Under the pieces are notes generated by a model. It ran no database searches. It saw only the letters and a list, made by a program, of their open reading frames with translations, and was not told the origin of the DNA. Shown in pieces: positions 6,222 through 51,240 of a stretch of DNA of 64,000 nt (position 1 is the first letter of the stretch; each line of letters opens with the position of its first letter). Both the position numbers and the translations under genes were made by a program. Source of the DNA: a virus (Duplodnaviria; Heunggongvirae; Uroviricota; Caudoviricetes); the IMG/VR virus record IMGVR_UViG_2778260992_000001; one strand, written 5' to 3'.

Positions 6222-9200
6222 ATGAAGGCACTGATGGTTCGAACTGACTTCTCACTTGGGGAGTCGGCTCTTAAAGCAGAAAACGCGGTGAAGATTGCCA
6301 GAGAAGCTGGCTACACCGCTGTAATTTCAGCAGATAGCATGAATATTGCGAGTGTTATTCCACTACAACGTGCCGCTGGTGACGACATGGCGGTTATTTG
6401 TGGTGTGAAACTAAACATCGTTGATGATCCCACATACGAGCACCGGGCTAAACTTGTTAAAGAATCTAAGGGATGTATGGAATCATTAGAGCGAGGACGT
6501 AACTACTCGTTTACCGCTCTAATTAAAAATGAGCAAGGATATCGCGACATCTGCGAACTAATGACGGTGGCCAACACACGAGAACAGTTCTACTTTGTAC
6601 CGCGTCTCTCGCTCGAACAGTTGGTTTCTACATATGCCAAAGGCAACATCATCCTGCTCACTTCCGACATCGGTAGCGTGTTCCAACGCAACGATTTTGC
6701 AAAAATCATAAGCACACTGATTACAGCGGGTGGAAAAGACAACTTCTATAGTGTGGTTTATCCGCACCCTACCCCATTCTACGACCAGATTAACGTCCGG
6801 GCGATGAAAGTCGCCAGCGCACTGAAAATAGAGCCAGTAGCGTTCTATCCCGCTTATTACGAATCGATCGACGATGCAGACATTAAAGACATTGCGCACA
6901 TGGTTATGAACAACATCAAAATCGACCAGCCGCATCGTCTGCGTATCCCCCACCAGCGAGATAACGCCGTCAATGGTCGCCGCCATCTCCTTGAGGCGCT
7001 TAAAGCCTTCTCCGTTCGCATGGATGTGCCGGTAACAGCTGCAATGGCCTCAACAACGCAGGATACCATTATCGATGCCTGCACATGGCGCTGGCATGAA
7101 TTGCCACCAGCACTGCCAAAGATGGCAGACGACGAGCCTGCAACGCTGATGAAACTGGCCGTTGCTGGGCTGCGTAAACGTCTTACCACAAAAGAGTTTG
7201 GCTACACACCACCGGCTTCTGAGAACAGGATTTATGTTGAACGGCTTAAGTACGAAATGGACACGCTTACTCGCCTGGGATTTTGTGGTTACTTCCTGAT
7301 GGTACGCGATCTGATGAATCACAGCCGTGAAGCTGGCATTCCTGTCGGGCCTGGTCGTGGCTCCTCCGCTGGCTCTCTGGTGGCATGGTGCATAGGTATA
7401 ACCAACGTCGATCCTATCCGTCACGGTCTTCTGTTTGAACGTTTCATCAACCCTGAGCGTCTCGACTTGCCGGATGCGGATTTGGACTTCAGCCAGGCAC
7501 GTCGCCATGAAGTGATCGAGTATCTGAATGAACGCTACGGCGAAGATTACGTTGCGGGTATTCCGAACTTCACATATCTGGGCGCAGCCTCTGCACTACG
7601 TGACACCGCTCGTATTTATGGTGTGGAGTCCGCAGATATGGCGGTATCAAAAGAACTGAAGAACGTCGAGGATGATAGCCTTCCACTGGAGGAGCTGCGC
7701 GAACAACTGGCAAGTCTCGACAAATACGCGACAAAATACCCTGATGCATTCAATGCAGCCTGCAAGTTACAAAGCCTTATGCGTGGCTTTGGTAGACATG
7801 CGGCAGGGATGATCGTAGCAGGTGTTCCTCTGACAGAACGTACACCGGTTGAGCGCCGTGGTGACGCGCGTTGTATCGCATTTGACAAGCGTTACTGCGA
7901 GGCTATGGGCCTAATTAAGCTGGACGTGCTTGGCCTGGCAACTCTCGATTTGCTCGATAGTGCAAAACGCTACATTAAAGAGAACACAGGTGAAGATATC
8001 AATCTTGATGCCATATCTCTTGAAGATCGCAAGGTGCTGGATGGTTTTGCTGCTGGGTACACTCAAGGTGTTTTCCAGCTTGAATCAGGCCCAATGCGCA
8101 AGCTGCTTAAAGATTTAGGTGGTGGAATTGAGCCAATGAGCTTTAAAACGGTCGTCGCTACGACTGCGCTCTTCCGGCCGGGGCCAATTCAGTCAGGCAT
8201 GTTGGATGACTATGTTTCTGTAGCCAAAGGCTTTATGACGCCGGAATCATTACACCCCGTTCTTGATGAGCTTACCGCAGAAACCAACGGTGTGATTCTC
8301 TATCAGGAGCAGACGATGAACGCGACCCGATTGCTTGCCGGCTTCACAATGGCTGAAGCTGACGGCGTTCGTAAAGCGATCGGCAAAAAAGATATGGAAA
8401 AAATGAAGAGCATGGGCGAGAAGTTCATCGTTCAGGCTCAAGCTGGCTGGATAGACGTTGAGCTGGAAGATGGCACTACACAGCGCATTCACCGTGCGGA
8501 ACATTTTAAATGCGAAGACGGAACTCTGAAAACTGTCGAAGAGGCACTTGAGCACGGCGCAAAACTACCTATAAACGCAGTACGCGTGACAGCGTCACAC
8601 CCAGGGCTATCAGAGATGAAAGCGAAGGAGATCTGGACCGCATTCGAAAAAAATGGTGCCTACCAGTTCAACAAATCACACTCTGTTGCTTACTCCTTAA
8701 TCAGTTATCAATCTATGTGGTTGAAAACTCATTATCCCGCAGAGTTTTTCGCTGCTGCTCTTACTATTCTTGGTGAAGATAAACACCAGGGGCTGGTTAA
8801 AGATGCGCTGACCTATGGCATTCGCGTATTGCCACCAGACGTTAATGTGTCATCTAACCGAATAGAGATCCGCACGCTTGAAGATGGCAGCCAGGTGCTG
8901 TTAGCGCCTTTCTCTGCTGTGAAGGGGTGTTCAGAGAATGGCTGCCAAGCCATCATGAGAGCGCGTGAAAAAGTTGGAGGTAAATTCGAGTCACTGGCGC
9001 AATTCGAAGAAGCTGTCGAGAAACGTGCCTGTAATAGTCGAGTACGCGAATCACTGCAAAAAGTAGGGGCGTTTGCATCCATTGAGCCTGGTAGTCTGCC
9101 AGCAACTGATCCAGAGCGTCTCCGCGACCAAGCAGAATTGATGGGAAACCTTGTCATAGACGCAGTTAAAGCCTCACGTCCGTTTGAAATGAACCCCAAA

Positions 9201-17036: not shown

Positions 17037-17372
17037 ATGAAGGCCATCCCATTCGCTCTGTTGTTCCTTTCTTCGATCGTTGTGGCCGACACCACTGTTT
17101 ATCAGTGTGAAATGTCTGTAGCCGACATTAAGAATGGCGCTTTTACCGACGTCATAAAAGCACCATATGGCGCGATGGTCGTAGACAGCGGCGACCAGTT
17201 CTATGTAGTGCGTGACGATCGAGTATTGTCATCCCCATATCTCACAAACCGTAATGGCAAATTAACCGGCGTAGGAGAAGACCACTTCGTATACAACAAA
17301 TACAAGGGCTTCTATGGCGTTCACGCTTCTCAGCAAAGCTACCTTTTCGATGACTGCAAGGAGGTTGGATAA
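17037..17372 (+). CDS. hypothetical secreted protein
   Basis: N-terminal signal peptide MKAIPFALLFLSSIVVA. Confidence 0.5.
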   Translation: MKAIPFALLFLSSIVVADTTVYQCEMSVADIKNGAFTDVIKAPYGAMVVDSGDQFYVVRDDRVLSSPYLTNRNGKLTGVGEDHFVYNKYKGFYGVHASQQSYLFDDCKEVG

Positions 17373-17584
17373 TGGCATTAACACTGGCAGGTCTGGAAAT
17401 CGAGAAAACAAGCGGCTACTGGCGTGCTAAGGGTTTCAAGCAGCCTGGCATTCTTGAGCGTCTGGAACGTGAAGATGGGTATATCGTCCACCAGCGGCGT
17501 GAATGGCGTATGTACGATCCAGAAACAGGAAAACTGACTACAAAAGCCGGAACACTTTGGGGTCTGTTAAAGAAAATACACTAA
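17372..17584 (+). CDS. hypothetical protein
   Basis: 70-aa ORF overlapping the previous stop. Confidence 0.4.
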   Translation: MALTLAGLEIEKTSGYWRAKGFKQPGILERLEREDGYIVHQRREWRMYDPETGKLTTKAGTLWGLLKKIH

Positions 17585-17593
17585 ATGCAAACT

Positions 17594-17615
17594 GACTGCG
17601 GCACGTGCCGCAGTC
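17594..17615. terminator. palindromic stem-loop GACTGCGGCACGTGCCGCAGTC
   Basis: Perfect palindrome right after the stop codon, before the iteron array. Confidence 0.5.
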
Positions 17616-17631
17616 ATATTTCATAGTCGTC

Positions 17632-18164
17632 ACCGCTGACAGCATACACAATCAATTACCGCTGATAGCATATCGAGAGTTTATCTCACCGCTCACAGCA
17701 TACTTTACTCGATTTTTTACCGCTGACAGCATACTTAAGACATTGCATGAATAATGTGTACCGGTATGGGTATAACCAGAACAAAATTACCGCTGGCAGC
17801 ATACGAAGGTCTGACATATACCATTAATTACCGCTGATAGCATATCCAAACAAAAATTCCTCAATAAAACACCGCTGACAGCATACGTTCTATCAGGGAG
17901 CAGCAGGCAATAAATGCCTTTCACTACAAGCAATCAGCGCAACGGCAATAGAATGTTAGTGAGCGCAAACCTATATGGAATGCACTCTTCGAGGTTAGTA
18001 ACCACTGGGGAGGTATGCCAGAGCATTGAGTGGTGATAGATGATTTACCGCTCACAGCATACGTTTATCTCACTATACCGCTGGTAGCATATCTTTAACC
18101 GTTCACAGCATACTTTTCAGAAAAATAGCCGCTGATAGCATACATTTCACCGCTGACAGCATAT
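17632..18164. repeat. incA-like iteron array (12 copies of ACCGCTGACAGCATAC and variants)
   Basis: 16-bp direct repeats at irregular 25-45 bp spacing downstream of repA, as in P1 incA. Confidence 0.8.
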
Positions 18165-19258
18165 CAAAGCAGTTTGAGACTATTGGAAAGGATCTCAATC
18201 ATCTTGATATTTTCAGGCGTCAAATTCTGCGAAAGTTCGGTTATCTTGTTGATAATGTTCTGTTTGGCATCAATTTCCCCAGCTTTCTCATCTGGTTTTT
18301 TGGGTTCGATGTCTTCAGGTTTTGGCGGTGCGACTTTGAGTTTTGGATTGCGGCTGTGAATCTGGATATAGATCGACCGCCCACGCTTAATCTCGCTGTA
18401 TTCGAGATAGCCCAAATCTTGGAGAGCTTTTAATCCGTTACGTATAGTCTGATTCTGCGAGCTGACATTCCTGCTACTCAAATTGAGTCGCGCACGCAAT
18501 CGAGCAAGCGATACCGGCGCAGGCTTGGTTGGAAGACTTTCGATGAAGGTGTACAGAGCCTGTGCTGTTTCTTTGCGTGGTAGCTTATTGATAACCTTTA
18601 ACTGCAAAAGAACCTTATGGTCAAAGCGATATAGTTCGGCCAGCTTCGGTTCTGCATAGAACACCACCGTATCTTTCTGCTCGTTGTAGTCCACGCTATT
18701 GATGAGGTGCACCATCAGAAGCGAGATCTTGTTAGAGCCGTCGACGTTCTTTTCTTCATACGTTCTCTGGAAAGACAGAGTTGTACGCATGATCTTCAAA
18801 AGACTGTTTGTAAGCCGGTCGCGGAGTGTTTTGCGGATCTGTGACGATGGATAGCCACAAAACTTCGCAAATTTCGTGATGCTTAACTCGACACGACCAT
18901 TAGGTTCGCCGTATTCTGCCAGCGAACGCACAACGCCCACCCACGTTTTGAAATCATGATCCATGTCCAGGCGAGGACCGGTTATCTTGATATCGGAATA
19001 GCCTTCAGAACGGGCTACTTCGAGCTGGACAAGCTCCTTTGAAGCATCGATCTCATTTGGCTTGTTACGTTTACTGTATTTTGTTCCCTTAAGCGTGGGG
19101 ACGAACAACCCCAGTCGCATCAACGCAATTGGTTGGACTGTATTGTTGCTATTAGGGACAAGTTCCCCTGTGTACAATTCAAGGGAACCTTCTTCAAAGT
19201 TGTCGATGTTATCTTCTACTTCTTTGTTATTTTTACCTTTTTTATTTTTTGTGGACAT
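18164..19258 (-). CDS. repA: plasmid replication initiator RepA (P1 RepA-like)
   Basis: Blocks NSNNTVQPIALMRLGLFVP, EGYSDIKITGPRLDMDHDFKTW, AQALYTFIESLP and IQIHSRNPKLK closely match P1 RepA as remembered; start set at MSTKNK because the upstream track extension runs over the iterons. Confidence 0.85.
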   Translation of the reverse strand: MSTKNKKGKNNKEVEDNIDNFEEGSLELYTGELVPNSNNTVQPIALMRLGLFVPTLKGTKYSKRNKPNEIDASKELVQLEVARSEGYSDIKITGPRLDMDHDFKTWVGVVRSLAEYGEPNGRVELSITKFAKFCGYPSSQIRKTLRDRLTNSLLKIMRTTLSFQRTYEEKNVDGSNKISLLMVHLINSVDYNEQKDTVVFYAEPKLAELYRFDHKVLLQLKVINKLPRKETAQALYTFIESLPTKPAPVSLARLRARLNLSSRNVSSQNQTIRNGLKALQDLGYLEYSEIKRGRSIYIQIHSRNPKLKVAPPKPEDIEPKKPDEKAGEIDAKQNIINKITELSQNLTPENIKMIEILSNSLKLL

Positions 19259-19278
19259 GTGGACACCTTTGTCATTCA

Positions 19279-19380
19279 ACCGCTGACAGCATACTTGATT
19301 TGCCGCTGACAGAATACCAAAAACAGTTGGCAGCATACGGTGAACCGCTGACAGACTATCAATTACCGCTGACAGCATAC
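19279..19380. repeat. origin iterons (about 5 copies of ACCGCTGACAGCATAC family) upstream of repA
   Basis: Same repeat as the downstream array, between repA start and the GATC cluster. Confidence 0.8.
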
Positions 19381-19420
19381 ATGAACATGGCTTCAGACCA
19401 GTCGTGGCGCGGCTTACAGC

Positions 19421-19495
19421 GATCGGGGATCTTATTTGATCTATACAAGGATCTATCTATGGATCTCTTTATTAGGATCTATCCTGTGGATATGT
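19421..19495. other. origin-associated GATC cluster (6 sites in about 60 bp) with DnaA-box-like TGTGGATAT
   Basis: Organisation DnaA box - GATC repeats - iterons - repA mirrors P1 oriR; a Dam methyltransferase is encoded in the window. Confidence 0.65.
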
Positions 19496-19579
19496 GAATA
19501 ATTAAAACAGGCATTTACTACCTTCGGCGCACCTGGTGGGTTATCGTTGCCTCGGCTAACAATCACAGAAAAATGACAT

Positions 19580-20224
19580 ATGGATCTAAAACGCACGCGC
19601 TGGGTTCGTCGTCTTGAAGACGGCTCCTACACTATCGAATCAAATTCCAACCTGAATAAGCAGAAGTTGCTTTGTGACATCTGCGGTATAGCGGCGAAGT
19701 GCCCGATCTACGAAACCAGAATTAAACTTGATAAGGCTGGTGTGAATTTTCATTTAAACAGTTGCATCAGGTACGTTCCATTACTCGCATTTCGTAAACC
19801 GATCATCGGATTGGATGCTCCCTACTTCAACACACTCCGTTCAGGTGTGACGTGGCGAGATCGTTTATCACCAGACAAGCTGATTTGCCTCGTATCCGCA
19901 GACACAGGGAAAATCATCCGTTTTGGGAAAGTAGACAAGGTTTACTCAGGCCCAGTAGACGAAATGTTGCGGAAACACAGCCGGTTTAATCATCTCTGTA
20001 TGGGTGGTGAGAAAATCGAGAAGGTAGAAGAAGTGATCCGCAAATCCTACGGACACTTTCTGACCAAAGATAGCCTGCTCACCGCAATCTACATCAGACA
20101 TGTAAAACGTGAGTTCGACCTCGAATACCACAGCGAAGAAGAGCTTAACCTTGTTGACCCACGTCCAAAAGCTGGCGTCATAAGCATAAACGCAGCGCGT
20201 AAAAAGCCCACTGACGCGCTGTAA
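19580..20224 (+). CDS. hypothetical protein
   Basis: 214-aa ORF adjacent to origin; Cys-rich N-terminus. Confidence 0.5.
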   Translation: MDLKRTRWVRRLEDGSYTIESNSNLNKQKLLCDICGIAAKCPIYETRIKLDKAGVNFHLNSCIRYVPLLAFRKPIIGLDAPYFNTLRSGVTWRDRLSPDKLICLVSADTGKIIRFGKVDKVYSGPVDEMLRKHSRFNHLCMGGEKIEKVEEVIRKSYGHFLTKDSLLTAIYIRHVKREFDLEYHSEEELNLVDPRPKAGVISINAARKKPTDAL

Positions 20225-34613: not shown

Positions 34614-35207
34614 ATGATTGCAGCCGAAAAAATCAAACAGCGAAAGCGCGACAACTCTCTTCGTGACCTCTGGAGAACACCTGATTGGCTGTTTTCTGCC
34701 ATTCAACGTTATCTTGGGGTGACATTTGATGTTGACGTTGCCTGCAACAAGGACAATGCAAAGCTGCCTAATTTCATAGGCGTTGAGCGTGATGCTTTGA
34801 AATCTGAATGGGGACAGCCAGGTACAATTGCCTTCCTCAATCCACCCTACTCCAAAATCTCCCCCTGGATTGATGCTGCTATACGTGAGCAGGCTCGCGG
34901 AGTTACAACAGTGATGCTAATTCCTCAATCCCTCGATACAAAGTGGTATGAGCGTGCAACAGAGTATGCGAATGAGACGATTATTCTGTCTGGTGGCCGC
35001 GTAGCGTTTGTCGAGCCTGACGTCAATTTGGGTCAGGTAGAAGTAAACATCAACCCCGGTGGCAGTATGCTCGTTGTTTTTCGAGGATTCTGTCAGGACG
35101 CTGGGCACTCTATAAGCAAGATCCCTTTGGACGTAATGAAAAGTCTGGGAGGGTATGATCCTGCGAATGTGGTCAGGAAAAAAAGACCATCAAAGAAGGC
35201 TGCTTAG
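34614..35207 (+). CDS. dam: phage-type DNA N6-adenine methyltransferase (Dam family)
   Basis: WRTPDWLF and NPPY motifs; start at ATG (track ORF begins at a TTG codon, 34602). Confidence 0.8.
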   Translation: MIAAEKIKQRKRDNSLRDLWRTPDWLFSAIQRYLGVTFDVDVACNKDNAKLPNFIGVERDALKSEWGQPGTIAFLNPPYSKISPWIDAAIREQARGVTTVMLIPQSLDTKWYERATEYANETIILSGGRVAFVEPDVNLGQVEVNINPGGSMLVVFRGFCQDAGHSISKIPLDVMKSLGGYDPANVVRKKRPSKKAA

Positions 35208-47948: not shown

Positions 47949-49049
47949 TCACACTGCGCGGAATGCGATTTCGCCAGGTATTACTTCACCTTGCCAATAC
48001 ATTTGGGCAGCAACGCGATCTGCGAGGTCACGATAAATAGCCGTAAATTCGCTATCTGGACGACTAATAACGGTTGGTGTTCCGTTATCCAGATCTTCAC
48101 GAAGAGAGATATGAAGTGGCATTTGGCCTAACAACTGCGTGTTGTATTTCTCGGCCAGTTTCTGTGCGCCACCGGTGCCAAAAATTGGCTCGTGATGACC
48201 GCAGTTACTGCAAATATGCACACTCATGTTTTCAACGATACCCAGTACCGGCACTTCGACTTTTTCGAACATCACAATGCCTTTCTTCGCATCGATCAGC
48301 GCGATGTCTTGCGGCGTAGTTACCACAACCGCACCAGTTACAGGAATGTTCTGCGCCAGCGTCAACTGAATATCACCAGTGCCCGGCGGCATATCGAGAA
48401 CGAGATAGTCCAGATCAGGCCACAGTGTTTCCTGCAACATCTGCATCAGCGCCTTGCTGGCCATCGGTCCACGCCACACCATTGCATTGTCGTCGGTGAC
48501 CAGATAACCAATAGAGTTGGTTGCCAGGCCATGAGACATGATAGGTGCCATGTGAGTACCGTCAGGTGAGGTTGGACGTTGGTTTTCCGAGCCCAGCATG
48601 GTTGGAATTGATGGACCATAGATATCGGCATCCAAAATACCAACTTTCGCACCTTCAGCAGCCAACGCCAGTGCCAGGTTTACCGCCGTGGAGGATTTAC
48701 CCACGCCGCCCTTGCCTGAGCTGACGGCGATAATGTTCTTCACGCCATTAATGCCTGGTTGGTTTTTGACGCGCTTAAGCGTGGCAATGTTGTACGACAG
48801 CTTCCAGTCAATAGCCTTTGCGCCAGTGATACGGAGCAGATCACCACTACATTGCTCTTTCAGGTCTTCAAAAGGCTTATTCCACACGAAAGGCATGATT
48901 AGTTCGACATGCAGTGTGTCATCCATCAACGCAACATGGTGTAACGCTTTAAGCGTAGTCAGGTTGTGTTTCAGGGTTGGGTGCTGAAAATTAGCCAGCG
49001 TACCGGCTACCATTGCTCTCAGGGCATCCGGCGATTTGGACTCGCTCAT
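47949..49049 (-). CDS. mrp: iron-sulfur cluster carrier ATPase Mrp/ApbC (host-type)
   Basis: Near-identical to enterobacterial Mrp over its length as remembered (ALRAMVAGTLANFQHPTLKHNL ... SSGKGGVGKSS ... CSNCGHHEPIFG). Confidence 0.9.
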   Translation of the reverse strand: MSESKSPDALRAMVAGTLANFQHPTLKHNLTTLKALHHVALMDDTLHVELIMPFVWNKPFEDLKEQCSGDLLRITGAKAIDWKLSYNIATLKRVKNQPGINGVKNIIAVSSGKGGVGKSSTAVNLALALAAEGAKVGILDADIYGPSIPTMLGSENQRPTSPDGTHMAPIMSHGLATNSIGYLVTDDNAMVWRGPMASKALMQMLQETLWPDLDYLVLDMPPGTGDIQLTLAQNIPVTGAVVVTTPQDIALIDAKKGIVMFEKVEVPVLGIVENMSVHICSNCGHHEPIFGTGGAQKLAEKYNTQLLGQMPLHISLREDLDNGTPTVISRPDSEFTAIYRDLADRVAAQMYWQGEVIPGEIAFRAV

Positions 49050-49206
49050 CCCGTCTCCTTTATTTTAATTTGCGCAATTGTCGCCTTGTAGTGTACTCCA
49101 GCTACGACATTTAATCATTTATGAGAAATGCTGTTATCACATGGCAGACATAAGGCCATTTTGTTACTATCAAGCCCCTTTTCACTACAAAGAAGTAATG
49201 CCTACT

Positions 49207-51240
49207 ATGACCCAAGTCGCGAAGAAAATTCTGGTGACGTGCGCGCTGCCGTACGCTAACGGCTCAATCCACCTCGGCCATATGCTGGAGCACATCCAGG
49301 CTGATGTCTGGGTTCGTTACCAGCGAATGCGCGGCCACGAGGTTAATTTCATCTGTGCCGACGATGCCCACGGTACGCCGATCATGCTGAAAGCACAGCA
49401 GCTTGGTATCACACCGGAACAGATGATTGGCGAAATGAGTCAGGAACACCAGACTGATTTTGCAGGCTTTAACATCAGCTATGACAACTATCACTCGACG
49501 CACAGCGAAGAGAACCGTCAGTTGTCCGAGCTTATCTATACTCGCCTGAAAGAGAACGGTTTTATTAAAAACCGCACCATCTCTCAGCTGTACGATCCGG
49601 AAAAAGGCATGTTCCTGCCGGACCGTTTTGTGAAAGGCACCTGCCCGAAATGTAAAGCACCGGATCAATACGGCGATAACTGTGAAGTCTGCGGCGCTAC
49701 TTACAGCCCGACTGAACTGATCGAGCCGAAATCGGTAGTTTCTGGTGCTACGCCGGTAATGCGTGATTCCGAACACTTCTTCTTTGATCTGCCTTCTTTC
49801 AGCGAAATGTTGCAGGCATGGACCCGCAGCGGTGCGTTGCAGGAGCAGGTGGCAAACAAAATGCAGGAGTGGTTTGAATCTGGCCTGCAACAGTGGGATA
49901 TCTCCCGCGATGCGCCGTACTTCGGTTTTGAAATTCCGAACGCACCGGGCAAATATTTCTACGTCTGGCTGGACGCGCCGATTGGCTACATGGGTTCCTT
50001 CAAGAATCTGTGCGACAAACGCGGCGACACTACCAGCTTCGACGAATACTGGAAGAAAGACTCCACCGCCGAGCTGTACCACTTCATCGGTAAAGATATC
50101 GTTTACTTCCACAGCCTGTTCTGGCCTGCCATGCTGGAAGGCAGCAATTTCCGCAAGCCGACCAACCTGTTTGTTCATGGCTATGTGACGGTGAACGGTG
50201 CGAAGATGTCCAAGTCTCGCGGCACCTTTATTAAAGCCAGCACCTGGCTGAATCATTTTGACGCTGACAGCCTGCGTTACTACTACACTGCGAAACTCTC
50301 TTCGCGCATTGATGATATCGATCTCAACCTGGAGGATTTCGTTCAGCGCGTGAATGCCGATATCGTGAACAAAGTGGTTAACCTGGCCTCCCGTAATGCA
50401 GGCTTTATCAACAAGCGTTTTGACGGCGTGCTGGCAAGCGAACTGGCTGACCCGCAACTGTACAAAACCTTTACTGATGCTGCTGAAGTGATTGGTGAAG
50501 CATGGGAAAGCCGCGAATTTGGTAAAGCGATTCGTGAAATCATGGCGCTGGCTGATCTGGCTAACCGCTATGTCGATGAACAGGCTCCGTGGGTGGTGGC
50601 GAAGCAGGAAGGGCGCGATGCCGATCTGCAGGCGATTTGCTCTATGGGCATTAACCTGTTCCGCGTGCTGATGACGTACCTGAAACCGGTACTGCCGAAA
50701 CTGACTGAACGTGCAGAAGCATTCCTGAATACAGAACTGACCTGGGATGGTATCCAGCAACCGCTGCTGGGCCATAAAGTGAATCCGTTCAAGGCACTGT
50801 ATAACCGCATCGACATGAAGCAGGTTGAAGCACTGGTGGAAGCATCCAAAGAGGAAGTAAAAGCCGCTGCCGCGCCAGTAACTGGCCCACTGGCAGATGA
50901 TCCGATTCAGGAAACCATCACCTTTGACGACTTCGCCAAAGTTGACCTGCGCGTGGCTCTGATTGAAAACGCGGAGTTTGTCGAAGGTTCTGACAAACTG
51001 CTTCGCCTGACGCTGGATCTCGGTGGCGAAAAACGTAATGTCTTCTCCGGCATTCGTTCCGCTTATCCAGATCCACAGGCACTGATTGGTCGTCACACCA
51101 TTATGGTGGCCAACCTGGCTCCGCGTAAAATGCGCTTCGGTATCTCCGAAGGCATGGTGATGGCTGCTGGCCCCGGCGGGAAAGATATCTTCCTGTTAAG
51201 CCCGGATGCTGGTGCTAAACCAGGCCACCAGGTTAAGTAA
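49207..51240 (+). CDS. metG: methionyl-tRNA synthetase (host-type)
   Basis: [26 protein letters not shown] (HIGH) and KMSKS motifs; essentially the E. coli-type MetG sequence; start set at MTQVAKK, 43 codons inside the track ORF. Confidence 0.95.

Follow-up and report, generated by a model that had tools for sequence, protein, structure and literature searches.

Within the window, that is, the whole stretch of 64,000 nucleotides that was analysed, the segment from 17593 to 19501 encodes a predicted replication initiator, RepA, whose gene is flanked on both sides by direct copies of a 16-bp repeat; the upstream copies are followed by a spacer, a cluster of GATC sites and two tandem predicted DnaA boxes. 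The features of the segment are as follows, together with a DNA methyltransferase gene located elsewhere in the window.

17593..17616, no strand assigned: G+C-rich hairpin with a 10-bp stem and a 4-nt loop, terminator-like on both strands
17632..17734, minus strand: distal cluster of the incA-like downstream array, four iterons starting at 17632, 17658, 17688 and 17719 (spacing 26/30/31)
17789..17886, minus strand: middle cluster of the downstream array, three iterons starting at 17789, 17830 and 17871 (spacing 41/41)
17887..18046, no strand assigned: iteron-free gap of 160 bp in the downstream array, containing a conserved block
17954-17970 and 17993-18011, no strand assigned: the conserved gap block, TGTTAGTGAGCGCAAAC ... 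GGTTAGTAACCACTGGGGA, from sequence comparison of relatives
18047..18164, minus strand: proximal cluster of the downstream array, five iterons starting at 18047, 18077, 18098, 18128 and 18149 (spacing 30/21/30/21)
18164..19258, minus strand: repA, predicted iteron-binding replication initiator of 364 aa, ATG at 19258
19250..19265, minus strand: tandem TGTCCACA octamers over the repA start codon, weak DnaA-box-like candidates (each 7/9)
19279..19380, minus strand: five direct origin iterons (incC-like), starting at 19279, 19302, 19323, 19344 and 19365 (spacing 23/21/21/21)
19381..19420, minus strand: G+C-rich spacer, GCCGCGCCACG..., between iterons and GATC repeats, homologous to a segment of P1 oriR
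19421..19482, minus strand: A+T-rich cluster of six GATC sites, starting at 19421, 19428, 19438, 19450, 19462 and 19476
19485..19501, minus strand: two tandem predicted DnaA boxes, TTATTCACA at 19501-19493 and ATATCCACA at 19493-19485, with one base common to both
34614..35207, plus strand: Dam-family N6-adenine DNA methyltransferase (Pfam PF05869, E 2.2e-38; RefSeq 'phage N-6-adenine-methyltransferase')

Scanning the 64-kb window for the 16-mer ACCGCTGACAGCATAC with up to 3 mismatches yielded 17 copies, all of them on the plus strand and all inside 17632-19380, where 0.47 would be expected by chance (the mean of dinucleotide-preserving shuffles, with a maximum of 3). Five copies are exact (17632, 17719, 17871, 19279 and 19365), and the others carry 1-3 mismatches. 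Scored with a weight matrix derived from them, the 17 iterons reach 19.3-30.2 bits, against a top score of 15.4 elsewhere in the window. A prior inspection of the letters alone (the sequence-only reading) had counted the repeat 12 times downstream and about 5 times upstream of repA, and 12 and 5 are the numbers found. All 12 downstream iterons are in direct orientation, and the final base of the iteron starting at 18149 is also the first base of the stop codon of repA. The downstream array shows no robust helical phasing (resultant length 0.64-0.68 at 10.2-10.3 bp/turn, 0.26-0.28 at 10.4-10.5). Decayed iterons in the array gaps at 17735-17788 and 17887-18046 were considered and rejected, as the weight-matrix scan found nothing there of 8 bits or more. 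The hairpin at 17593..17616 marks the outer boundary of the replicon and separates a small convergent ORF (17372-17584, plus strand) from the repA/iteron unit on the minus strand; it is retained in the Salmonella plasmid AnCo3 with changes on both stem arms. An Rfam search of 17300-19800 gave zero matches at E up to 1, and no tRNA genes were found in the window.

On the other side of repA, the spacer has an A+T content of 42.5%, compared with 65% for the GATC region. The six GATC sites, previously described as lying within about 60 bp, span 59 bp (19421-19479); five of them belong to heptamers of the AGATCCN type, the sixth being CGATCG. Other 65-bp stretches of the window hold three such sites at most, and the whole window has 271 in 64 kb. 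By analogy with P1, the cluster is presumed to be the target of Dam and SeqA and the region of DNA opening. The adjoining box ATATCCACA (read on the repA strand; TGTGGATAT on the plus strand at 19485-19493) matches TTATNCACA at 8/9 positions, whereas TTATTCACA at 19493-19501 matches at 9/9 and is one of just 3 perfect matches in the window. The DnaA-box-like site reported earlier is therefore real at 19485-19493 but is not a single box, since a second abuts it at 19493-19501. Similarly, the limits proposed with it, 17594-19495, contain the replicon parts, but their right edge cuts the origin because the second DnaA box extends to 19501, and a limit of at least 19501 is better. The octamers at 19250..19265 occupy the position of the inner DnaA-box-like sites of P1, and relatives have GTATCCACA at this position. 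With the layout anchored to P1 oriR, the predicted minimal origin is about 19259-19501.

Over residues 32-309 (278 residues), RepA shares 43.5% identity with P1/P7 RepA (E 2e-64); it is 48% identical to the RepA of SSU5 and 85% identical to that of Klebsiella SSU5-like elements. Profile matches were obtained to phrog_775 (E 5e-133) and Pfam Rep3_N (E 3.9e-9), whereas no NCBIfam family was found for the protein and a search of its sequence against solved structures gave nothing at E up to 1. An AlphaFold model based on a 38-sequence alignment (pLDDT 70; the single-sequence prediction, at pLDDT 40, could not be used) has the iteron initiators RctB (domains 2-3, E 5e-7) and RepE (E 2.5e-5) as its best matches among solved structures, and also matches a Rep WH1 domain. 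Two winged-helix domains are predicted for the protein, with a linker and helices making up its C-terminal end. The notion that this C-terminal tail is specific to SSU5-like elements was discarded, as a linker and helix are widespread in enterobacterial RepFIB-like initiators, with the P1 and RCS47 proteins being short. RefSeq annotates a longer open reading frame, 18164-19378, encoding a 404-aa RepB. This annotation starts 40 codons too early and reads the five origin iterons as coding sequence: the extra 40 codons are translated iterons (MLSAV...LSAV...LSAA), the N-termini of P1 and SSU5 RepA align at the ATG at 19258, and the Cronobacter frame is without an earlier ATG. Many assemblies have also been rotated to start at this ATG.

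Scanning the minus strand over 17400-19700 revealed no sigma-70 consensus promoter for repA. The positions equivalent to P1 PrepA contain weak hexamers only, which are not conserved in relatives, and a promoter chosen by eye (TTGATA-19-TATGCT) was rejected as it is not kept in relatives either. From the P1 arrangement, one would expect the promoter of repA to be situated among the origin iterons at 19279-19380. A search for an inverted-repeat operator for dimeric RepA, as used by F RepE, found the terminator hairpin only, which fits autoregulation through the iterons in the style of P1 rather than of F.

The sequence-only reading had proposed that the locus reproduces the oriR-repA-incA logic of P1. 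This is borne out by homology and extends beyond shared logic, being apparent in RepA, in the origin core and in the order of the parts. As in annotated P1, the order is DnaA boxes, GATC heptamers, G+C-rich spacer, five iterons, repA and downstream array, and the non-iteron core of P1 oriR can be aligned base for base with the origin core here (65% identity). Both origins have five direct iterons, spaced 23/21/21/21 here and 22/21/21/21 in P1. The six GATC sites align with the five annotated Dam sites of P1, with first three spacings of 7, 10 and 12 as against 7, 10 and 11. The DnaA boxes align with P1 TTATCCACA-TTATCCACT (TTATCCACATTATCCAC), although, unlike those of P1, they overlap by one base. 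Copy 9 of P1 incA ends at the last base of repA, and the array here likewise starts on the repA stop codon. The iteron itself is distinct, as had been suggested, being GTATGCTGTCAGCGGT here and GATGTGTGCTGGAGGGAAA in P1, with only GTrTGCTG in common. Other differences concern RepA, which compared with its P1 counterpart has an N-terminus about 30 residues longer and a 55-residue C-terminal tail, and the downstream region, where 12 direct iterons contrast with nine in P1 (three direct and six inverted). In addition, the array here is split by a conserved 160-bp non-iteron block, unlike that of P1, and no counterpart of P1 parAB-parS follows it. Copy control may differ in detail from that of P1, because the downstream iterons are all direct whereas those of P1, P1-like JK004, RepFIB and SSU5 are of mixed orientation.

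Other relatives carry a homologous origin core, which, with GATC heptamers and spacer included, is 67% identical in RepFIB, 77% in Klebsiella and 56% in SSU5. RepFIB is represented here by the P1-like phage RCS47, whose RepA has relatives annotated 'RepFIB replication protein A'. Its RepA is 41% identical and lacks the C-terminal tail, and its iterons (GTTGACTATACGCGA) flank repA, with five upstream at 21-22 bp and six downstream in mixed orientation. The SSU5 / pHCM2 / pLF82-type RepA is the other replicon type of SSU5-like phage-plasmids. It occupies the same genomic slot, between a 645-bp ORF and small convergent ORFs, and combines a RepA with a comparable C-terminal tail and a homologous origin core with a different iteron (TATCCACTGTAGWGAGTA); an SSU5 weight matrix finds none of these in the region here. 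Its downstream array contains both orientations. SSU5 carries the origin core as a tandem duplicate.

In a comparison of five diverged replicons, invariant columns account for 96% of GATC positions (23/24), 82% of those in the DnaA boxes and 75% of those in the iterons, against 44% of the rest. The five-iteron layout of the origin and its spacing are kept in all relatives examined, two of which have one copy below the scoring threshold. Downstream, the number of iterons among relatives is 4, 8, 8, 9, 10, 11, 12 or 13. For example, an 87-bp deletion leaves phage PhiR41_1 with a single distal iteron out of the four, E. coli p4_0.2 carries an additional distal iteron, and plasmid p204A1-109K is without the gap and without four of the proximal iterons. 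A variable downstream array beside a maintained origin layout is as expected of a dispensable control array and not of an origin. The general pattern is a conserved host-factor module coupled to a diversified RepA-iteron pair that sets specificity, as is usual for iteron replicons.

The closest matches place the replicon in a known group. Its identity is 99.3% over 1,919 bp to pECOH89 (NC_023916.1, E. coli H89), the plasmid to which the name IncFIB(H89-PhagePlasmid) refers, 99.9-100% to pG749_2, 99.1-99.2% to the plasmid of the O104:H4 strain 2009EL-2050 and 99% to phages CMS-2020a and PhiR41_1. PlasmidFinder assigns IncFIB(H89-PhagePlasmid) to pEc_K1G_A, a plasmid with the same rep region (PMC13463583). 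The H89-type group of about 110-kb E. coli/Shigella phage-like plasmids (p09EL50, pG749_2 and pEc_K1G_A, with CMS-2020a and PhiR41_1) thus has the same replicon with no substantive difference. Bases 75-25000 of the window are 99.9% identical to pG749_2, a 110-kb element with tail, capsid, portal and terminase genes in addition to dnaE, nrdAB and thyA, in which RepA is the sole annotated Rep initiator. The replicon is carried by 119 of 5,426 complete E. coli genomes; all 183 places at which it occurs there are plasmid-borne, and no chromosome has it. We therefore consider, with a probability of about 0.88, that 17593-19501 serves an SSU5-like E. coli phage-plasmid as its replicon in the plasmid (lysogenic) state, and that it belongs to the P1 / RepFIB family and is of the IncFIB(H89-PhagePlasmid) type. 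The replicon is already known; biologically it offers nothing new, and the element is an ordinary one.

A working scheme can be drawn from P1, the source of every step in it, with our analysis supplying the anatomy, the homology and the pattern of conservation. RepA monomers would bind the five 21-bp-phased iterons at 19279-19380, and host DnaA would bind the tandem boxes at 19485-19501 and perhaps also the weak sites at the start of repA. The A+T-rich GATC-heptamer segment (19421-19482) would open next, allowing the host replisome to load. Firing would need this segment to be Dam-methylated; afterwards it would be hemimethylated and held by SeqA, so that re-initiation is limited. RepA bound to the origin iterons would also repress its own promoter. 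The 12 downstream iterons (17632-18164) would not be part of the origin and would instead form a copy-number and incompatibility locus, acting through RepA handcuffing with the origin iterons and through titration of RepA. The distinct iteron sequence would confer specificity, and hence an incompatibility group apart from P1, RepFIB and SSU5-type replicons. The sequence-only reading had also pointed to a Dam methyltransferase in the same window, and the gene at 34614-35207 agrees with this. The enzyme is trans-acting and encoded outside the replicon; its GATC specificity is assumed from the family name, and it may have a bearing on how the GATC sites of the origin are methylated.

A different location for the origin has been published for the same replicon in pEc_K1G_A (PMC13463583, 2026). 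In that account there are 8 repeats, all downstream of the gene, with an 'iteron-type oriV' assigned to the four farthest, described as 21-bp repeats 10, 9 and 5 bp apart downstream of repB; this pattern corresponds to 17632-17734 here, where starts are spaced 26/30/31. No mention is made of the GATC cluster, of the DnaA boxes or of the five iterons upstream, and the plasmid is said to be unrelated to P1 (PMC13463583). If oriV lay in these distal repeats, the upstream repeats would merely be coding sequence of the 404-aa RepB, in keeping with the RefSeq frame 18164-19378. However, the start-codon evidence given above, from the translated iterons to the rotated assemblies, goes against that frame; PhiR41_1 exists without three of the four distal iterons, and relatives keep the upstream five-iteron layout while their downstream copies range from 4 to 13. 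The counterpart of the mapped P1 oriR, with its DnaA boxes, GATC heptamers and five iterons at 21-bp phase, sits upstream of repA, and comparison with P1 argues against the published placement, which we regard as very unlikely. The downstream array could otherwise be a partition (centromere-like) site or a recombination/attachment site instead of a RepA-binding control locus. Direct-repeat arrays near maintenance genes can be centromeres, and the record of Klebsiella phage pJN2-26 labels two of the repeats attL and attR. Those two are one origin and one downstream iteron flanking repA, as automated prophage-boundary calling yields. Moreover, the downstream repeats share their sequence with the five origin repeats and lie where P1 has incA, with the first of them at the repA stop codon, and no par operon adjoins them, the genes for a ParA-like ATPase and for ParB-domain proteins being tens of kilobases away. 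A role in partition or attachment is accordingly extremely improbable.

It could also be supposed that the whole replicon is an inherited relic and that the element is maintained from another origin by its own replisome, as it encodes DnaE, a DnaB-like helicase, primase and ligase. Because the element has its own DnaE, DnaB-like helicase and primase, a separate lytic origin is probable. In P1, oriR coexists with a distinct lytic replicon (oriL/repL), and the presence of two systems is normal. Several observations nevertheless speak against decay of the replicon described here. Judging from its substitution pattern, repA is under strong purifying selection, with pN/pS of 0.07-0.12 against relatives, between which 63-79% of synonymous positions differ. 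Conservation extends over the GATC sites, the DnaA boxes and the iterons and is lower in the bases around them. More than 100 plasmids carry the module intact at 98-100% identity, and its copies in E. coli are all plasmid-borne. It is also found on non-phage plasmid backbones; the cassette is present on the 34.7-kb multireplicon plasmid pCFSAN004177P_01, where homology stops at 19508, just past the DnaA boxes. That the replicon is a relic is thus highly improbable, and an active plasmid-state replicon of the P1 / RepFIB family is the reading we retain.

The block within the iteron-free gap is kept in E. coli, Salmonella and Cronobacter relatives and occurs only once in the window. In Klebsiella its second half (GTTAGTRACCACTGGG) is present but displaced, and in plasmid p204A1-109K the block is absent. 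It shares TAACCACTG with the SSU5-type iteron, and derivation from a relic iteron of that type was considered; this was rejected, as the SSU5 weight matrix does not give the block a score of 9 bits or more. It is conceivable, though unlikely, that the array is not just an equivalent of P1 incA, and that the block and the all-direct array together provide a binding site for a second factor, either host- or phage-encoded. If so, this factor might modulate RepA handcuffing, for instance by releasing copy-number control at the switch from the plasmid to the lytic state.

The value of these observations lies chiefly in annotation. About 2% of complete E. coli genomes contain a phage-plasmid with this replicon, and some of these phage-plasmids bear ESBL genes, CTX-M-15 on pECOH89 being an example. 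Its layout is obscured in current records by the overlong RefSeq RepB, by attL/attR labels on iterons in one phage record and by the single published account, which puts oriV within the presumed control array and treats the plasmid as unrelated to P1. Anchoring the origin to P1 oriR predicts that replication would depend on dam, seqA and dnaA, and the downstream array, if it acts as its P1 counterpart does, may offer a handle for incompatibility-based curing or for manipulation of copy number.

A search for ACCGCTGACAGCATAC, allowing up to three mismatches, across the 64-kb window returned 17 iteron matches against 0.47 expected from shuffles, all on the plus strand and all inside 17632-19380. 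Five of the 17 are exact, and a weight matrix made from the iteron copies scores them at 19-30 bits and the window elsewhere at no more than 15.4 bits. The two sets of iterons are separated by an ORF on the minus strand that ends at 18164, giving the following layout:

17632-18164, plus strand: 12 downstream iterons
18164-19258, minus strand: repA, 364 aa
overlapping the repA ATG: two TGTCCACA octamers, weak DnaA-box matches (7/9)
19279-19380, plus strand: five origin iterons
19421-19479: six GATC sites within 59 bp
19485-19493: DnaA-box-like site TGTGGATAT
19493-19501, repA strand: perfect DnaA box TTATTCACA, abutting the TGTGGATAT site

The sequence-only reading had described 12 downstream and about five upstream copies and a cluster of six GATC sites, and these observations are confirmed; the remaining window holds at most three GATC sites per 65 bp. 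The DnaA-box-like site that it noted is also present, but the second, perfect box was overlooked, so that the right edge drawn at 19495 cuts the origin. At the other end, a terminator-like hairpin on both strands (17593-17616) separates the repA unit from convergent small ORFs; in Salmonella AnCo3 its stem is kept by paired changes (GCGGCAC/GTGCCGC to GCGATGA/(G)CATCGC).

RefSeq annotates the initiator as a 404-aa RepB starting at 19378 (window 18164-19378, minus strand; 6571-7785 in the RefSeq relative L001). Its 40 extra residues are translated iterons (MLSAV...LSAV...LSAA), and the overlong CDS hides four of the five origin iterons. The true repA is the 364-aa gene starting at 19258, and three other lines of evidence back this start. 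The ATG at this position matches the aligned N-termini of P1, SSU5 and Klebsiella RepA, the Cronobacter frame contains no ATG earlier than the equivalent one, and many assemblies are rotated so as to begin at this codon. The protein matches phrog_775 (5e-133) and Pfam Rep3_N. Its identity to P1/P7 RepA is 43.5% (residues 32-309, E 2e-64); to SSU5 RepA it is 48%, to RepFIB-type RepA 41% and to RepA of Klebsiella SSU5-like elements 85%. An AlphaFold model (38-sequence alignment, pLDDT 70) finds its best solved-structure matches in RctB domains 2-3, RepE and a Rep WH1 domain. Values of pN/pS of 0.07-0.12 against four relatives, with synonymous sites nearly saturated, indicate strong purifying selection on repA. 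Residues 310-364 (18164-18328) form a 55-residue C-terminal extension missing in P1 RepA, made up of a linker rich in Pro, Glu and Lys and, after it, two predicted helices; as similar tails are common in enterobacterial RepFIB-like initiators, it is P1 RepA that is the short outlier.

Comparison with the annotated P1 record shows that the origin aligns base for base on the repA strand (TTATTCACATATCCACAggatAGATCCT...AGATCCCCGATCGctgtaaGCCGCGCCACGactgg in the window, TTATCCACATTATCCACtggatAGATCCA...AGATCCCTGATCGttgcagGCCGCGCCACGtctgg in P1). The origin iterons are spaced 23/21/21/21 in the window and 22/21/21/21 in P1, and the first three GATC spacings are 7, 10 and 12 as against 7, 10 and 11. 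The downstream iteron nearest repA reaches the stop codon of that gene, much as its P1 counterpart reaches the last repA base, and the TGTCCACA pair occupies the position of the inner DnaA-box-like sites of P1. In a six-way alignment the origin core is 65% identical to that of P1, 67% to RepFIB (of the P1-like phage RCS47), 77% to Klebsiella phage pJN2-26 and 56% to SSU5. Judged by these alignments, the window origin is homologous to P1 oriR, and the interpretation as a P1-like oriR-repA-incA replicon is supported by RepA identity, the origin-core alignment and the shared spacings. Among five H89-type replicons, invariant alignment columns make up 96% of GATC sites, 82% of DnaA boxes, 75% of iterons and 44% of everything else. 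Phage SSU5 (L005) differs in having two tandem DnaA-box/GATC-heptamer cores upstream of repA (740-880 and 1135-1250), each followed by iterons; the GATC sites of the core closer to repA are decayed (GAACC, GACCC), whereas those of the outer core are intact.

The same architecture has been reported for the near-identical plasmid pEc_K1G_A (PMC13463583). That study works from the 404-aa repB, gives only eight downstream repeats, places oriV in the four distal repeats and denies any relation between the plasmid and P1 or P7. It is highly improbable that oriV lies there, given the homology of the upstream segment to P1 oriR and the loss of three distal copies from phage PhiR41_1 in an 87-bp deletion that leaves nine; the upstream assignment of the sequence-only reading is the better one. 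Downstream copy number varies among relatives: 13 in E. coli p4_0.2, 12 in most E. coli copies including the window, 11 in Salmonella AnCo3, 10 in a Cronobacter plasmid, eight in Klebsiella pJN2-26 and in E. coli p204A1-109K (where the gap and four proximal copies are deleted), and four in the multireplicon plasmid pCFSAN004177P_01. The relatives preserve the arrangement and spacing of the five origin iterons, with one origin copy in AnCo3 and one in pCFSAN004177P_01 below our 14-bit scoring threshold. Variation of this kind is in keeping with a dispensable control locus prone to recombination, not with an origin. All 12 downstream iterons share the orientation of the origin iterons; in contrast, P1 has three direct and six inverted, and the arrays of the P1-like JK004, RepFIB and SSU5 are of mixed orientation. 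Within the array, a gap (17887-18046) contains a conserved non-iteron block at 17954-18011 (TGTTAGTGAGCGCAAAC ... GGTTAGTAACCACTGGGGA), which occurs once in the window, is kept in E. coli, Salmonella and Cronobacter replicons, is represented in Klebsiella by a displaced second half and is missing from one natural deletion variant. GenBank labels one origin and one downstream iteron of pJN2-26 (L004) as attR/attL (1378-1397 and 2648-2667); automated calling of prophage boundaries on RepA iterons has almost certainly produced these labels as an artefact.

The host element is a ~110-kb SSU5-like phage-plasmid, with genes for tail, capsid, terminase, dnaE, nrdAB, thyA, a DnaB-like helicase and primase. 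Across its replicon region, identity is 99.9-100% with E. coli plasmid pG749_2, 99.1-99.2% with the plasmid of O104:H4 strain 2009EL-2050, 99.3% with pECOH89 and about 99% with the phages CMS-2020a and PhiR41_1. The replicon was found in 119 of 5,426 complete E. coli genomes, at 183 plasmid and no chromosomal places, and the rep region is typed by PlasmidFinder as IncFIB(H89-PhagePlasmid) in a 2026 paper (PMC13463583). An 81%-identical copy occurs on pCFSAN004177P_01 (L012), a small mobilizable E. coli plasmid (34.7 kb) also typed IncFIA and IncFIC. This copy lies between a resolvase and a transposase gene, so that the replicon is seen to move as a cassette outside phage-plasmids. Homology to the window stops just beyond the DnaA boxes. 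A 214-aa ORF that adjoins the origin, divergent from repA (19580-20224, plus strand; phrog_2105, E 1e-132), is kept in all SSU5-like elements examined, and a search for Pfam families in it found none; being absent from the cassette copy, it is probably not a replicon component. No par genes adjoin the downstream array: ParB-domain genes lie at the far window end and a ParA-like ATPase beyond it. Elsewhere, 47949-51240 carries chromosome-type genes, apbC (47949-49049, minus strand) and metG (methionine-tRNA ligase, plus strand, ORF end 51240), named from the annotation of near-identical pG749_2; this stretch was probably captured from a host chromosome.

Iteron sequence varies by RepA lineage: GTATGCTGTCAGCGGT in H89-type replicons, GATGTGTGCTGGAGGGAAA in P1, TATCCACTGTAGWGAGTA in SSU5 and GTTGACTATACGCGA in RepFIB. 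The P1 and H89 iterons have only GTrTGCTG in common, in agreement with the earlier claim of a distinct iteron. As the host-factor part of the origin is shared among lineages, these replicons join a conserved origin core to a diversified RepA-iteron pair, which is the usual escape of iteron plasmids from incompatibility.

The P1 replicon mechanism, reportedly worked out by Chattoraj, Abeles and Austin, suggests how the unit may operate. By analogy, DnaA and RepA monomers on the five origin iterons would jointly open the methylated A+T-rich GATC segment, and after firing the hemimethylated origin would be sequestered by SeqA. RepA would repress a repA promoter inside the iterons; a scan for this promoter found no consensus promoter. 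The downstream array would handcuff origins and titrate RepA, leading to low copy number and incompatibility. A methyltransferase gene had been claimed in the window, and one assigned by family to Dam is indeed found at 34614-35207; E. coli itself supplies Dam. The replicon is already catalogued and belongs to a well-known family, and the remaining value lies in a corrected annotation and in one minor feature, the conserved block within the gap of the array.
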